Below are positions 474-30,699 of a stretch of 64,000 nucleotides of DNA, piece after piece. The DNA is from Escherichia coli. Its GTDB lineage: Bacteria > Pseudomonadota > Gammaproteobacteria > Enterobacterales > Enterobacteriaceae. The notes beneath the pieces were generated by a model. The model did not search any database, was not told the origin of the DNA, and saw only the letters and a list, made by a program, of their open reading frames with translations. Numbering within the stretch: position 1 is the stretch's first letter; the number at the start of each line of letters is the position of its first letter. Both the position numbers and the translations under genes were made by a program. Location of the stretch: assembly GCF_048403405.1 (NCBI RefSeq), contig NZ_CP183129.1; one strand, given 5' to 3'.

Positions 474-1055
474 TTATGCAGCGAGATTTTTCGCTACGAA
501 TTCCCAGTTCACCAGCGCCCAGAAGTGCTCCAGATAGCCAGGACGTGCATTGCGATAGTCGATGTAATAAGCGTGTTCCCAGACATCAACGGTCAGCAGC
601 GGAGTCGCATCGGTGGTCAGCGGAGTACCCGCGTTAGAGGTTGAAACGATAGCCAGTTTGCCATCGCTGTTTTTCACCAGCCAGGTCCAGCCAGAACCAA
701 AGTTTTTGATCGCTGCATCAGTAAACTGCGCTTTGAAATCGGCAAAGCTGCCAAAAGATGCGGCGATAGCTTCAGCGACTTTTCCAGTCGGTTCGCCACC
801 GGCGTTCGGTGCCAGGCAGTTCCAGTAGAAAGTATGGTTCCAGACCTGAGCTGCGTTGTTGAATACGCCACCTTCAGAGCTGCGAATAATCTCTTCCAGT
901 GATTTACCTTCAAACGCGGTACCTTTAATCAGGTTGTTCAGGTTAGTGACATAAGTCTGATGATGCTTGCCGTAGTGATACTCGATAGTTTCCGCAGAAA
1001 TGTGCGGTGCCAGAGCATCTTTAGCATATGGTAGTGCAGGTAATTCGAATGACAT
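474..1055 (-). CDS. sodB: Fe superoxide dismutase
   Basis: 193-aa ORF, Fe/Mn-SOD family sequence ([18 protein letters not shown]). Confidence 0.97.
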
Positions 1056-1150
1056 TGCTACTCTCCTTTATTATTAATTTGCATACGTACAATAGCCTTA
1101 TTGTGCGTATGGATAGGGTAGCAAATTAAAAGGTGAGACAAAAGATGAAC

Positions 1151-1178
1151 TTACCCTGTTGCCGTAACAACAGGGTAA
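1151..1178 (-). terminator. Hairpin TTACCCTGTTG-CCGTAA-CAACAGGGTAA downstream of mepH
   Basis: Perfect inverted repeat immediately 3' of the mepH stop on the minus strand. Confidence 0.5.
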
Positions 1179-1182
1179 AGTT

Positions 1183-26265: not shown

Positions 26266-27324
26266 TTACCCTTTGCGATGGCCGTAGACGCGCGGACGCG
26301 TGTAGTAATCGATCAGAGGAACCGTGATGTTCGCCAGCAGGACGGCAAAAGCCACGCCGTCAGGATAGCCGCCGAAACTGCGGATCAACCAGACTAATAA
26401 GCCCGCCAGCGCGCCGAAAATAAGACGACCACGATTGGTCGTAGAAGCGGTAACCGGGTCAGTCAAAATAAAGAATGCGCCGAGCATGGTCGCTCCAGAC
26501 AGCAGATGAATTTGCGGTGCTGCCAGTGTTTCTGGTGAGAACAACCAGCCCAACGTTGCGCATAACGCCAGCGTTACTAAGAAGCTGAGGGGAATATGCC
26601 AGCGAATCGCTTTCTGCCACAGCAACCATACGCCGCCAGCCAGCCAGGCGAGATTTACCCATTGCCAACCAACGCCCGCCAGCATACCGCTGTAGATCGG
26701 ATATTGCATAATCTGTTCAACCGAATGACCGGCACGGACAGAGGTTTTAAATGTATCCAGCGGTGTCGCCTGACTAATGCCATCAATACCTAAGCGTAGC
26801 GTGTTCATATCACCACCACTGGCTGTATGTCCGCTGAAAATAACCTGTATGGCGTCGATAAAACCAGGGATGTTGACCGCAATTTCATGTGGCGGTAACC
26901 AGCTGGTCATCTGCACCGGGAAGGAGATCAGTAAGACCACATAACCAATCATTGCCGGATTAAACGGGTTTTGCCCCAGACCGCCATACAACTGTTTAGC
27001 GATGATCACCGCAAACACCGTACCCAGCACGACCATCCACCATGGCGCGAGGGGGGGAATACTTACCGCCAGCAATAAGCCTGTCAGCAATGCTGAGTTA
27101 TCTTTCAACGTTGCGGCTACCGACTGCTTGCGTAGTTTGAGTACGAGAGCTTCGGCTAACAGAGCACTGACCGACGCCAACAGGATCTGAACGAGAGTAC
27201 CCCAACCAAAAAACCACAGTTGCGCTGCGATTCCTGGCACGGCTGCGAGCAACACCAACAGCATAATGCGCGATGTCTGGCGCTGGTTATGGGTATAAGG
27301 GGAGCTAGCTATTCTGAATACCAT
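26266..27324 (-). CDS. rsxD: Rnf/Rsx complex subunit D
   Basis: 352-aa membrane protein. Confidence 0.93.
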
Positions 27325-29547
27325 TTAGTCCTCGTTTACAACCTTTTGCTGGGCGGCTTTTTTGGCCTGAACGCGGGCAATAGCCGCGGCAACTGCCGCT
27401 TTGCGCGGATCAACCTGTTCTTCTGGTTCTGCGTTAGCCTGTTGCTGTTCCAGCTTGCGCGCTTTGGCGCGGGCAATAGCCGCTTCGACGGCCGCTTTGC
27501 GCGGATCAACCTGTTCTTCTGGTTCTGCGTTAGCCTGTTGCTGTTCCAGCTTGCGCGCTTTGGCACGGGCAATAGCCGCTTCGACTGCAGCTTTGCGCGG
27601 ATCGACCTGTTCTTCTGGTTCCGCATTAGCCTGTTGCTGTTCCAGCTTGTGTGCTTTGGCACGGGCAATAGCGGCTTCGACGGCGGCTTTGCGCGGATCG
27701 ACCTGTTGTTCTGGCTCGGCATTAGCCTGTTGCTGCTCCAGCTTGCGCGCTTTGGCACGGGCAATAGCGGCTTCGACGGCGGCTTTGCGCGGATCGACCT
27801 GCTCTTCTGGTTCCGCATTAGCCTGTTGCTGTTCCAGCTTGCGCGCTTTGGCGCGGGCGATAGCTGCTTCAACGGCAGTTTTACGTGGATCAGCAACGGT
27901 TGCTGCGTCGTTAGTTTGCTGCAGTTCTGCCTGTTTCGCTCTGGCTTGCGCTTTACGGGCTTCCCGTGCTGCAATAATTGCGCTGTTATCCGGGCGTTCG
28001 CCCGCTTTAATCACAATAGGCTGTGTAGCCTGGGCCTGTTTCTCTTTCACCCGCGCCAGAGCGGCAGCAATCGCATCTTTATCTTTGGCTGCAGGTTGAA
28101 CGGCTGCGCTCTTATGTCGTTCAAGGCGAGCCGCTTTTTCGCGCTCCAGACGAGCCTGGCGCGCTTCGAAACGCGCTTTGGCTTCTGCGGCGCGCTTTTC
28201 TTCCTGATGAATAGCCGCAATTTCAGCTTTTTCCTGACGGAAATATTGCACCAGGGGAATATTGCTCGGGCAAACCCACGCGCAAGCCCCACATTCAATG
28301 CAGTCGGCAATGTTATGCGTGGTAGCTTTATCGTGTTGCTGACCTTTGCTGAACCAGTACAACTGTTGCGGCAAAAGATCCGCAGGGCAGGCGTCAGCAC
28401 AGGCGCTACACCGGATGCAGCTTTGTTCTTCCTGTGGTTCGCCAAGCTCATTGGCAGAGGGAGCCAACAGACAGTTGGTAATCTTTACGACCGGGACATC
28501 CAGCCATGGCAAGGTAAAGCCCATTAGCGGGCCGCCCATAATCACCATTTGATCGGCAGAGGGGCAGAATCCGGCGTCATTCAATAAATGACGCACTGGC
28601 GTCCCCAGCCGTGCCCAGACGTTGCCCGGGCGAGCGATTGCTTCGCCAGTCAGGGTTACGACACGCTCGGTAATCGGCTCGCCATCAATAACGGCACGTT
28701 TCACTGCATAAGCAGTGCCGACGTTTTGCATTAATACGCCGATATCGGATGAACGCCCGCCATGTGGAACCTGCTTCCCGGTCAGAATGTAGGTTAATTG
28801 TTTAGCACCGCCAGAAGGATATTTGGTTGGAATCACCCGCAGAGAAATATCGTGAGAGTCCGCCAGCACCGCGCGCAGCATGGAAATCGCCTGCGGTTTG
28901 TTATCTTCAATGCCGATAAGAATTTCGCGTGGCTGCAGAATATGCGCAAGAATGCGAATACCCTCTACGACCTGAGCCGCGCAATCCTGCATCAAACGGT
29001 CATCGGCGGTAATGTACGGCTCGCACTCAGCAGCGTTGATAATCAACGTTTCAATCTTATCTCCGCCGCCCTGCAATTTAACACCTGTCGGGAATCCCGC
29101 ACCACCCAGCCCGGCAACACCAAACTGATGAATGCGCTCGATTAACTCTTCGCGACTGCGAGAGCGATAATCGTCCCAGCCGTCGCGCGGGATCCAGCAG
29201 TCTTCGCCATCGGCATCAATAATCACGCTTAATTCAGCTAAAGCTGAAGGATGAGCCGTAGAGTGGGGCGCAATAGCCGTAACGGTACCCGAGGTGGGCG
29301 CGTGAACTGGCAGCATTTTGCCGCGTCCACGGGTAAGCGGCTGGCCGCGCAGTACTTTATCGCCGACGCTAACGCACAACTCACCTTCAGCGCCAATATG
29401 TTGTTTCAGTGGTATGACAAAACGCTGCGCCAGTGGTACCTGGCGCAGGGGCGTACCGTTGGACTGGGTTTTCATCTCCGGTGGATGGATGCCGCCGTTG
29501 AAATCCCAGATTTTATTTTTTCTGAATGCAGAGAATAACTTAAGCAT
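27325..29547 (-). CDS. rsxC: Rnf/Rsx complex subunit C (ferredoxin-like 2x[4Fe-4S], NADH-binding) with repeat-rich C-terminus
   Basis: 740-aa ORF; two CxxCxxCxxxCP motifs; C-terminal 32-aa tandem repeats. Confidence 0.93.
27340..27950. repeat. About six tandem copies of a 96-bp in-frame repeat within the rsxC 3' region
   Basis: GCGGGCAATAGC recurs at 27373, 27469, 27565, 27661, 27757, 27853 (period 96 bp). Confidence 0.9.
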
Positions 29548-30118
29548 GGTGTTCCACGGGAATGATACGCACGGGAATTGTGTTCAGATCCCATTTCCAG
29601 GAGTCAGGTGTTTCTGCAACCGGTTGCAACGAGATGCAGTGCGTCGGGCACGGATCAACACATAAATTGCAGCCCGTACAGAGATCACTCATTACCGTAT
29701 GCATGGCGCGGGTAGCACCAACGATGGCGTCTACCGGACACGCCTGAATACATTTAGTGCAGCCAATACAGTTATTTTCATCAATAAACGCCACCATCCG
29801 CGCAGGCGTTAGCTCTTGCGCTTCGCCATCCAGCGGCTGTGGCTCGACATTAAGCAACTCAGCAATTTTTAGCATCACAGCTTCGCCACCTGGGGCGCAG
29901 CGGTTAATTTTTTCACCGTTACAGCTGATGGCTTCCGCGTAGGGGCGACAGCCGGGATAACCGCACTGACCACACTGGCTCTGCGGTAAGATTTCGTCAA
30001 TTTTCTCAACGACCGGATCGTCTTCCACCGCAAAACGGCGGGAGGCATAACCCAGAATGGCGCCAAACGCCAGGCCCAGCAGGCTCACGGCGGCAACGGC
30101 AATCCAGATAGCATTCAT
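29540..30118 (-). CDS. rsxB: Rnf/Rsx complex subunit B (Fe-S)
   Basis: 192-aa ORF with multiple Cys clusters. Confidence 0.93.
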
Positions 30119-30699
30119 TACAACTTCACCAAACCACTAAAGCCCATAAAGGCCAGAGACATAAGACCTGCGGTAATTAACGCAATGGCATTACCGCGAA
30201 AAGGTGCCGGGACATCAGCCACAGCAAGGCGTTCGCGGATGGCGGCGAAAAGCACCATCACCAGCGAGAAACCGACAGCGGCGGAAAAACCGTACAGCGC
30301 CGACTGCAAGAAATTGTGCCCGAGATTGATATTCAGCAACGCCACGCCGAGCACTGCACAGTTGGTGGTGATAAGCGGCAAAAAAATCCCCAGCAGACGG
30401 TAAAGCACCGGGCTGGTTTTGCGCACCACCATCTCGGTGAACTGCACAACCACAGCAATCACCAGAATAAACGCCAGGGTGCGCAGGTAAATCAGATTAA
30501 GCGGGATCAAAATCCACGTATCGATAAGCCAGGCGCAAATAGACGCCAGCGTCATCACAAACGTTGTAGCCAGCCCCATGCCCATCGCGGTTTCCAGCTT
30601 TTTGGAAACCCCCATAAACGGACAGAGACCGAGAAACTTGACCAGTACAAAGTTATTGACCAGTACAGTTCCGACAAACAGTAACAGGTAGTCAGTCAT
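30118..30699 (-). CDS. rsxA: Rnf/Rsx complex subunit A
   Basis: 193-aa membrane protein. Confidence 0.93.

Follow-up and report, generated by a model that had tools for sequence, protein, structure and literature searches.

Oxidative and Electrophile Defence Genes Within 30 kb Near the Escherichia coli Terminus: Probably Separately Controlled Loci on an Inherited Backbone

Within about 30 kb of an Escherichia coli chromosome lie sodB, grxD, nemR-nemA-gloA, sodC, gstA, nth and the rsx operon, which raises the question of whether genes for oxidative and electrophile defence are gathered there as a working unit or only stand side by side. The first-pass annotation of the window (the whole 64-kb stretch of DNA that was analysed) regarded the gene content as normal for E. 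coli, found the clustering striking, and suggested that it may reflect co-regulation or chromosomal domain effects near the terminus. In what follows, regulator assignments come from the literature, while gene identities, the operator, unit boundaries, synteny and the chance calculation come from the present analysis.

Identity and Chromosomal Position of the Segment

The segment corresponded to b1627–b1656 of E. coli K-12 MG1655, from rsxA to sodB (1,705,767–1,735,959, ~36.7–37.4 min), with identical genes, order and orientation, and its limits in the window, 474 and 30699, coincided exactly with the sodB stop and the rsxA start. Scores against NCBIfam equivalog or subfamily models were far above the cut-offs for SodB, GrxD, GloA, NemA, SodC, GstA, Nth, RsxA, and RsxC. 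NemR had no dedicated NCBIfam model and scored below the cut-offs of the models that it matched; its gene was identified from the RefSeq annotation of K-12 and of the 99.9%-identical strain MS 69-1. Scores and annotation together confirmed every gene named in the first pass at its coordinates.

The block was present and colinear in ~5,414 of 5,426 complete E. coli genomes, a genome being counted where at least 80% of bases 1–25000 lay in one place, and the identity of the window to all complete E. coli genomes was 95–99.9%. This distribution and the K-12 and MS 69-1 annotation agree with the initial view of the content as normal for E. coli. The G+C content of the stretch was even (0.50–0.56), and its annotation showed no integrase or transposase and no mobility gene of any other kind. 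Apart from two tRNA-Val genes, which in MS 69-1 lie outside the segment at ~10 kb past sodB, the annotation examined contained no tRNA genes. The segment, its genes, both of its operons and the NemR operator are already known, and belong to textbook E. coli.

The search of complete genomes returned ~8 places per genome. A dispersed repeat in the 610-bp spacer between dtpA and nth was considered as the cause and rejected, the spacer being single-copy; a tandem array within rsxC (96 bp × 5.4, positions 27374–27892) is the likelier cause.

Proximity to the terminus was borne out by two markers. The consensus of matS, which marks the Ter macrodomain, was matched at 32452–32464, 1.7 kb outside the segment (one match found vs. 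0.01 expected), and the core of a Ter site (TerB) was located on the minus strand at 52043–52056, adjoining tus and 21 kb beyond rsxA. The segment is hence 21–51 kb from TerB, and a positive cumulative GC skew on the plus strand was likewise consistent with a terminus region.

Transcription Units and Their Regulation

The 14 defence genes formed six transcription units (sodB; grxD; nemRA-gloA; sodC; gstA; rsxABCDGE-nth), or seven if lhr is counted, interleaved with ~16 unrelated housekeeping and transport genes on both strands. The use of two strands and the terminator-like hairpins after sodB, mepH, grxD, gloA, and dtpA do not fit a single operon for the whole 30 kb. The gene for Fe superoxide dismutase, sodB (474–1055, minus strand; NF007832, 434 bits vs. 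a cut-off of 348; annotation), is a unit of its own, because terminator-like hairpins were found 3′ of both mepH (1179–1150) and sodB itself (363–338). Monothiol glutaredoxin 4 is encoded by grxD (2345–2692, plus strand; NF008086, 257 bits vs. a cut-off of 205), also its own unit, which was followed by a terminator with a 12-bp stem at 2706–2735. The periplasmic Cu,Zn superoxide dismutase gene sodC (11812–12333, plus strand; NF007628, 365 bits) and the glutathione S-transferase gene gstA (21485–22090, minus strand; NF007831, 405 bits) were likewise separate units, the latter preceded by a strong terminator-like hairpin after dtpA (22173–22147). Between sodC and gstA are ydhKJI, slyA, slyB, anmK, mliC, pdxH, tyrS, and pdxY (12334–21441, from annotation), which have no defence role.

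The two remaining units are operons. In the minus-strand rsxABCDGE-nth operon (24308–30699; NCBIfam for Nth, RsxA and RsxC, and annotation), the coding regions abut or overlap on one strand, and nth, encoding endonuclease III, is the terminal gene (24308–24943; NCBIfam). The operon is annotated as a SoxR-reducing system, an Rnf-type complex that keeps SoxR reduced; unlike a defence enzyme, it turns the SoxR response off. The genes nemR (9844–10443), nemA (8710–9807) and gloA (8222–8629), the last two identified by NCBIfam (NF007899/NF007629) and annotation, are co-oriented on the minus strand with an operator upstream of nemR. No terminator-like site was found between nemA and gloA, and one followed gloA (8213–8191). 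These features indicate a nemRA-gloA operon.

The palindrome reported in the first pass, TAGACCAGTCGGTCTA, was recovered exactly at 10458–10473, 15 nt upstream of the nemR ATG. We take it to be the NemR operator in view of the uniqueness and conservation of the site; Umezawa and colleagues reportedly described a nemRA-gloA electrophile response with a NemR box in 2008. A scan of the 64-kb window gave no other perfect TAGACC-N4-GGTCTA site and no such operator at the other units; the sole match with two mismatches, at 45237, lies outside the segment and is within chance expectation. Among other Enterobacterales species, the palindrome occupied the equivalent place in 26 loci, and the exact operator stood upstream of nemR in 24 of 27 nemR-bearing loci, with three further loci in which nemR was cut by the locus end. 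The locus agrees with the electrophile-response operon described previously (Ozyamak et al., 2013, PMC3739934) in its genes, its palindrome and the lack of a nemA–gloA terminator, and partial expression of gloA by read-through from the nemRA promoter has been shown experimentally (PMC3739934). This operon covers only three of the 14 genes, and its operator is missing from the other units. Upon exposure to methylglyoxal, nemRA-gloA is the only local responder, the induced OxyR genes being located elsewhere (PMC3739934).

Published expression modules place the units apart. In the supplement of PMC6892915, sodB belongs to the Fur-1 iModulon and sodC to the RpoS iModulon, while none of the genes of the segment is among the listed members of the OxyR and SoxS iModulons; these lists are abridged, the SoxS list omitting two names and another entry ending in ‘+52’. 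By comparison, fumC, 20 kb outside the segment, is among the listed OxyR/SoxS members (PMC6892915 supplement). The supplement text searched made no mention of nemA, grxD or rsxA, which does not exclude them from a module (PMC6892915), and no stress induction of rsx-nth was found among the listed iModulon members. The mRNAs of sodB and grxD both co-purify with MS2-RyhB (PMC8544716), and grxD mRNA is degraded via RyhB (PMC11327457). RyhB control is an iron response acting in trans, as opposed to an oxidative-stress response, and GrxD itself acts as an Fe-S cluster carrier rather than as an oxidant scavenger (PMC11327457, PMC8544716). Shared control is confined to nemRA-gloA, to rsxABCDGE-nth and to the RyhB targets sodB and grxD. 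The suggestion of co-regulation therefore holds inside the two operons and for sodB and grxD under RyhB; for the cluster as a whole it is not supported, given the two strands, the hairpins, the lone NemR box and the separate modules.

A further gene of the segment, lhr (2743–7379, minus strand), which encodes a helicase/uracil-DNA glycosylase, was not named in the first pass. In the window strain a 20-bp tandem duplication at 3808–3847, absent from MG1655 and found in no other complete genome, shifts its reading frame. The predicted product follows the reference up to and including residue 1184 and then ends at residue 1232 of 1538, so that the glycosylase end of Lhr appears to be lost in this strain. 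Deletion of lhr makes E. coli sensitive to H2O2 (PMC10953399), and the protein has recently been tied to peroxide tolerance; the truncation may be of specialist use.

Synteny in Enterobacterales and Beyond

Synteny was compared in tyrS-anchored loci from 80 Enterobacterales species. The block was conserved in Enterobacteriaceae, Hafniaceae and part of the Erwiniaceae, and its best conserved part ran from slyA to pdxY, with slyA to pdxH kept in 68–72 of 72 loci and pdxY in 55 of 59. Of the defence genes, gstA was kept in 57 of 59 loci, and sodC in 47 of 72, fewer than its neighbours ydhK (54) and ydhF (55); sodC was found in none of the 13 loci of Hafniaceae, Pectobacteriaceae and Yersiniaceae. 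The nth-rsx genes were in 44 of 59 loci vs. 54 for dtpA. They were present in all 37 Enterobacteriaceae loci and, within 10 kb of tyrS, in none of the 11 from Yersiniaceae and Pectobacteriaceae, and the breakpoints in Dickeya and Yersinia immediately followed gstA or dtpA. The distribution of nemRA was patchy among Enterobacterales. The genes are thus not dispersed in most of the Enterobacterales sampled, dispersal being the result that the first-pass annotation had named as refuting its view. The segment behaves as a conserved syntenic block in which the housekeeping backbone is retained no less well than the genes for defence.

Deeper synteny was followed with RNase T. A word-index search returned only relatives with at least 82% identity and was uninformative at this depth; a search of 50%-identity clusters led to nine contigs, several of them short metagenomic ones with little context. 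Two contigs from distant Gammaproteobacteria (L088 and L089) carried rnt-grxD-sodB and nth within 7.7 kb, another (L091) linked rnt to sodB, and a fourth (L085) linked nth-pyrC-rnt and also rnf to nth. The rnt-grxD-sodB linkage and the position of nth near rnt are therefore much older than the Enterobacterales.

Clustering Relative to Chance

The segment holds six independent units within 30.2 kb. When K units were placed randomly on a 4.64-Mb circle (scan statistic), the chance of any window so dense was 0.004 for K = 60, 0.013 for K = 80, 0.043 for K = 100, 0.13 for K = 125 and 0.28 for K = 150; with lhr as a seventh unit, the value at K = 100 fell to 0.004. A category broad enough to span grxD, gstA, nth, and rsx holds ~100 or more units genome-wide, by our own enumeration rather than a curated set, and the category was fixed only after the genes had been seen. 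The enrichment is real yet fragile, its p-value depending on the breadth of the category. The clustering called striking in the first pass is nominally significant for a narrow category (K = 60–80), and p is 0.04–0.28 for a broad one (K = 100–150). The impression of a cluster arises mostly because two multi-gene operons supply 9 of the 14 genes and because the category is broad and post hoc.

Discussion

We consider the segment to be, with a probability of roughly 0.78, an ordinary stretch of core genome in which separately controlled loci stand together by history and not as a working unit, and we infer that selection has not acted on their co-location. An old Enterobacterales backbone, sodB-mepH-grxD-rnt-gloA ... 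slyA-slyB-anmK-mliC-pdxH-tyrS-pdxY-gstA-dtpA-nth-rsx, would have been inherited largely intact, with still older modules (rnt-grxD-sodB and rnf-nth) inside it, and nemRA, sodC, ydhIJK, and lhr would be lineage-specific, gained or lost within the backbone. Each unit would have its own signal, with NemR acting on nemRA and, by read-through, on gloA, iron acting through RyhB/Fur on sodB and grxD, and RpoS acting on sodC; rsx-nth and gstA would stand in no stress module among those listed.

It is rather unlikely that co-location has been selected, with the terminus-proximal position (the Ter macrodomain, lowest in dosage during fast growth) tuning the genes jointly and giving them relatively higher expression in slow growth or stationary phase, as proposed for ori–ter order and ‘stress-response domains’. 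The short distance to TerB with matS alongside, the nominal enrichment (p of 0.004–0.013 at K = 60–80) and the conservation of the block in most sampled Enterobacterales would be expected from such selection, and selection, as opposed to inertia, could account for the proximity of sodB, grxD and nth to rnt seen in some distant Gammaproteobacteria. The concepts of conserved ori–ter order and of stress-responsive domains in Dickeya, in which position shapes stress-gene expression, are published (Jiang et al., 2015, PMC4436070), and the segment is likewise Ter-proximal; those domains, however, are drawn from transcriptomes at a scale of hundreds of kilobases and are not functional gene clusters, whereas the 30-kb stretch is known here from a list of genes. 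Synteny does not favour a chromosomal-domain or dosage effect, because the housekeeping neighbours are conserved equally or better; moreover, rsx-nth has been removed by breakpoints in two families, sodC and nemRA come and go, and the genes are spread over different expression modules. A narrower proposal, that selection has kept the rnt-grxD-sodB link (divergent grxD and sodB, with nth a few kilobases off), is more doubtful still, although this link occurs in Enterobacterales and in some Gammaproteobacteria whose RNase T is only 50–57% identical to that of E. coli. If it were true, Fe-dependent enzymes and Fe-S carriers under iron-responsive control may gain from a common chromosomal position, and the E. 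coli 30-kb cluster would be the stretched remnant of a functional neighbourhood.

A local regulon, in which one regulator (SoxRS, OxyR, or NemR) drives several units via shared sites, is largely refuted and retains very little probability. The presence of nemR with its operator inside the cluster, the action of Rsx on SoxR, and the RyhB control shared by sodB and grxD all point toward it, but the NemR box stands alone at nemR with the near-match at 45237 outside the region and within chance, no gene of the segment is among the listed OxyR/SoxS iModulon members whereas fumC is, and RyhB is iron-responsive and acts in trans. The dense stress-related functions also recall the mobile stress islands known in Enterobacteriaceae, of which the transmissible locus of stress tolerance is an example; these are horizontally transferred, patchy in distribution and flanked by mobility genes. 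Stress genes are adjacent in both; the 30-kb stretch differs in being core genome, and its acquisition as such an island is hardly credible, being ruled out by its near-universal distribution in E. coli (~5,414 of 5,426 genomes) and contradicted by its synteny in 80 species, its even G+C, and the lack of annotated mobility genes.

The preferred reading of an inherited segment has small overall importance and is mainly cautionary. The statistical weight of gene lists of this kind hinges on how the category is drawn, and what appears as a ‘defence cluster’ near the E. coli terminus would be six or seven differently regulated units on an inherited backbone.

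Gene content and location

The gene and palindrome checks bear out in every detail the concentration of oxidative and electrophile defence genes that the first-pass annotation had described. Its limits are exactly the sodB stop (474) and the rsxA start (30699). SodB, GrxD, GloA, NemA, SodC, GstA, Nth, RsxA and RsxC lay at their expected places and scored well over the curated cut-offs of NCBIfam equivalog or subfamily models; the name NemR comes from RefSeq annotations. The K-12 MG1655 counterpart runs from b1656 (sodB, 1,735,378–1,735,959) down to b1627 (rsxA, from 1,705,767), with K-12 coordinates decreasing along the + strand of the window. 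Positions 1–25000 shared 99.9% identity with strain MS 69-1, and 5,414 of the 5,426 complete E. coli genomes contained 80% or more of them at a single site, in agreement with the description as normal E. coli gene content. The cluster is an already known feature and of low interest. Positions 20000–31000 had matches in 5,425 genomes, at about eight places per genome, but just 4,364 contained 80% or more of them at a single site. The 3′ part of rsxC contains an in-frame 96-bp tandem array (27374–27892; 5.4 copies, 91% matches; 32-aa repeats), whose copy number probably varies between strains, which would explain both figures.

A perfect match to the matS consensus (GTGACACTGTCAC) was found at 32452–32464 and the Ter core GTATGTTGTAACTA, which is TerB, at 52043–52056 on the − strand, between rstB and tus; cumulative GC skew of the + strand was positive. 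The cluster thus lies 21–51 kb from TerB, at the left replichore end within the Ter macrodomain, in line with its proposed position near the terminus. SoxS-regulated fumC and the RyhB target fumA adjoin tus, just outside the cluster.

Transcription units and regulation

The 14 named genes form six transcription units on both strands (sodB; grxD; nemR-nemA-gloA; sodC; gstA; rsxABCDGE-nth), with about 16 genes without a defence role in between (mepH, lhr, rnt, ydhL, ydhF, ydhIJK, slyA, slyB, anmK, mliC, pdxH, tyrS, pdxY and dtpA). Strong terminator-like hairpins follow sodB (363–338), mepH (1179–1150), grxD (2706–2735), gloA (8213–8191) and dtpA (22173–22147). A candidate seventh unit, overlooked previously, is lhr (2743–7379, − strand), between grxD and rnt, which encodes a helicase/uracil-DNA glycosylase whose deletion renders E. 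coli 10–100-fold more sensitive to H2O2 (PMC10953399). Here a perfect 20-bp tandem duplication (CCAGATAACCGCACCGGTAG, twice) at 3808–3847 causes a frameshift; the product follows the reference up to residue 1184 and stops at 1232 aa, against 1538 in the reference, so that the C-terminal uracil-DNA-glycosylase region is missing. Across the 5,426 complete E. coli genomes the duplicated junction found no match, and all six genomes matching the junction query, the window's closest relatives, carried a single copy. Either lhr is a pseudogene peculiar to this strain, or the duplication is an error of assembly.

The palindrome TAGACCAGTCGGTCTA was confirmed in sequence and exact position (10458–10473), 15 nt upstream of the nemR ATG (10443), and we take it to be the published NemR operator, reportedly described by Umezawa et al. 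in 2008. Of 27 fetched Enterobacterales loci with nemR, 24 had the exact palindrome immediately upstream of that gene, as did three more in which the locus end cuts off nemR. The palindrome was the single perfect TAGACC-N4-GGTCTA site in the 64-kb window, with none at the other units. No terminator-like hairpin was found between nemA and gloA, consistent with the reported transcription of gloA by read-through from nemRA; under methylglyoxal, RNA polymerase occupancy increases continuously along nemRA-gloA (PMC3739934). On the − strand at 9839–9856, at the nemR stop codon and just before the nemA start, lies another terminator-like hairpin with a trailing T run (GCCTGCCGTTTAGCAGGC ATTTTTTATC), which may serve as an attenuator inside the nemRA operon.

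Co-regulation of the whole cluster was not supported, because the NemR box occurs only at nemR and sodB and sodC belong to separate expression modules. Independent-component analysis of the E. coli transcriptome placed sodB in Fur-1, with negative weight, and sodC in the RpoS module; no gene of the cluster belonged to the OxyR module (ahpCF, grxA, trxC, dps, katG, yhjA, oxyR) or was among the listed members of the SoxS module, which includes fumC (PMC6892915 supplement), inside the window and 20 kb outside the cluster. The oxidative-stress genes induced by lethal methylglyoxal doses (ahpCF, trxC, grxA, dps) all lie elsewhere (PMC3739934). The mRNAs of sodB and of grxD, an Fe-S carrier, are both RyhB targets (PMC8544716; for grxD also PMC11327457). 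The oldest neighbour pair therefore shares control, and this control is a trans-acting iron-starvation RNA. Published proposals include a conserved gene order along the ori-ter axis and large chromosomal domains that respond to stress (PMC4436070), yet such domains are expression-defined and hundreds of kilobases long, whereas the cluster is a 30-kb gene stretch.

Synteny and origin of the arrangement

When 30 window proteins were searched by tblastn against TyrS-anchored loci (±10 kb) from 80 species of Enterobacteriaceae, Erwiniaceae, Pectobacteriaceae, Yersiniaceae and Hafniaceae, the block proved strongly conserved. Among loci covering the relevant flank, slyA was found in 68/72, slyB in 71/72, anmK in 70/72, mliC in 69/72, pdxH in 72/72, pdxY in 55/59, gstA in 57/59, dtpA in 54/59, nth and rsxE/G/D in 44/59, and sodC in 47/72, its neighbours ydhK and ydhF being present in 54/72 and 55/72. 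The genes are therefore not dispersed in most Enterobacterales, contrary to the synteny outcome that had been named as refuting the earlier reading. Defence genes were kept no better than housekeeping neighbours and included the block's most variable members: nth-rsx occurred in 37/37 loci of Enterobacteriaceae, 6/10 of Erwiniaceae, 0/4 of Pectobacteriaceae and 0/7 of Yersiniaceae, and sodC in none of 13 loci of Hafniaceae, Pectobacteriaceae and Yersiniaceae. Retention of this kind is the mark of an inherited gene order rather than of selection acting on a defence cluster.

Pectobacteriaceae, Serratia, Edwardsiella and Erwinia psidii had a compact left part, mepH-grxD-rnt-gloA-ydhL-slyA, in which tblastn found no nemRA, sodC, ydhIJK or lhr. 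Edwardsiella carried sodB to rsxD, the last gene within those loci, in <19 kb. Synteny stopped directly after gstA in Dickeya oryzae (locus L059, 13941–20029), followed by oppA-like, ribA, pgpB, lapB and pyrF homologues from the E. coli 28.9-min region, which indicates a rearrangement breakpoint. Synteny stopped after dtpA in Yersinia thracica (locus L063, 16975–21276), followed by an unrelated LysR regulator and ABC-transporter genes. In those genomes nth-rsx is located elsewhere.

Contigs with RNase T representatives of 45–64% identity were also checked by tblastn. In L088/L089 (10001–17704; RNase T 51% identical), rnt, divergent grxD and sodB were adjacent, with an nth gene, its product sharing 70% identity with E. 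coli Nth, 6.4 kb from rnt; in L091 (10001–11518; 50%) rnt adjoined sodB; and in L085 (151–3009; 57%) an RnfB-like gene, nth, pyrC and rnt were consecutive. These being distant gammaproteobacterial metagenomic contigs, the linkages are older than Enterobacterales; rnt-grxD-sodB and rnf-nth are thus old modules, with nth near rnt in some lineages. L097 (56%) had a weaker Nth homologue (42%) 5.5 kb from rnt, and four other lineages (L092, L093, L095, L098/L099) showed none of these rnt linkages. The E. coli arrangement looks like such an old neighbourhood expanded through insertions. In every non-Escherichia locus showing both genes (L016, L054, L061, L062, L077), all from relatives more distant than, for example, Citrobacter and Salmonella, grxD and rnt were adjacent or nearly so, with no lhr homologue detected in the interval, suggesting that the 4.6-kb lhr was inserted where grxD and rnt had previously adjoined.

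Significance of the clustering

The clustering had been called striking, and local enrichment is indeed roughly tenfold, but its significance is fragile. With K defence units placed randomly on a 4.64-Mb circle, the frequency of any 30.2-kb window holding at least six units depended on K, being 0.004, 0.013, 0.043, 0.13 and 0.28 for K of 60, 80, 100, 125 and 150; for seven units, with lhr, the values were 0.0 (no hit in 8,000 trials), 0.0006, 0.004, 0.016 and 0.05. The category was drawn after the genes were seen, as one among many that a reader might notice. It includes an Fe-S carrier (grxD), a general glutathione transferase, a base-excision enzyme and a SoxR-off complex, so it must also take in many other genes. 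Eligible are thiol-redox, Fe-S, GST, quinone/nitro-reductase, glyoxalase, methionine-sulfoxide and oxidative-repair genes, presumably roughly 100 or more units genome-wide by our own enumeration.

The earlier interpretation thus stands for normal content, terminus proximity and synteny, but not for co-regulation. The best explanation is that the cluster consists of independently regulated units linked by history, with two true operons and an after-the-fact category contributing to its apparent coherence.
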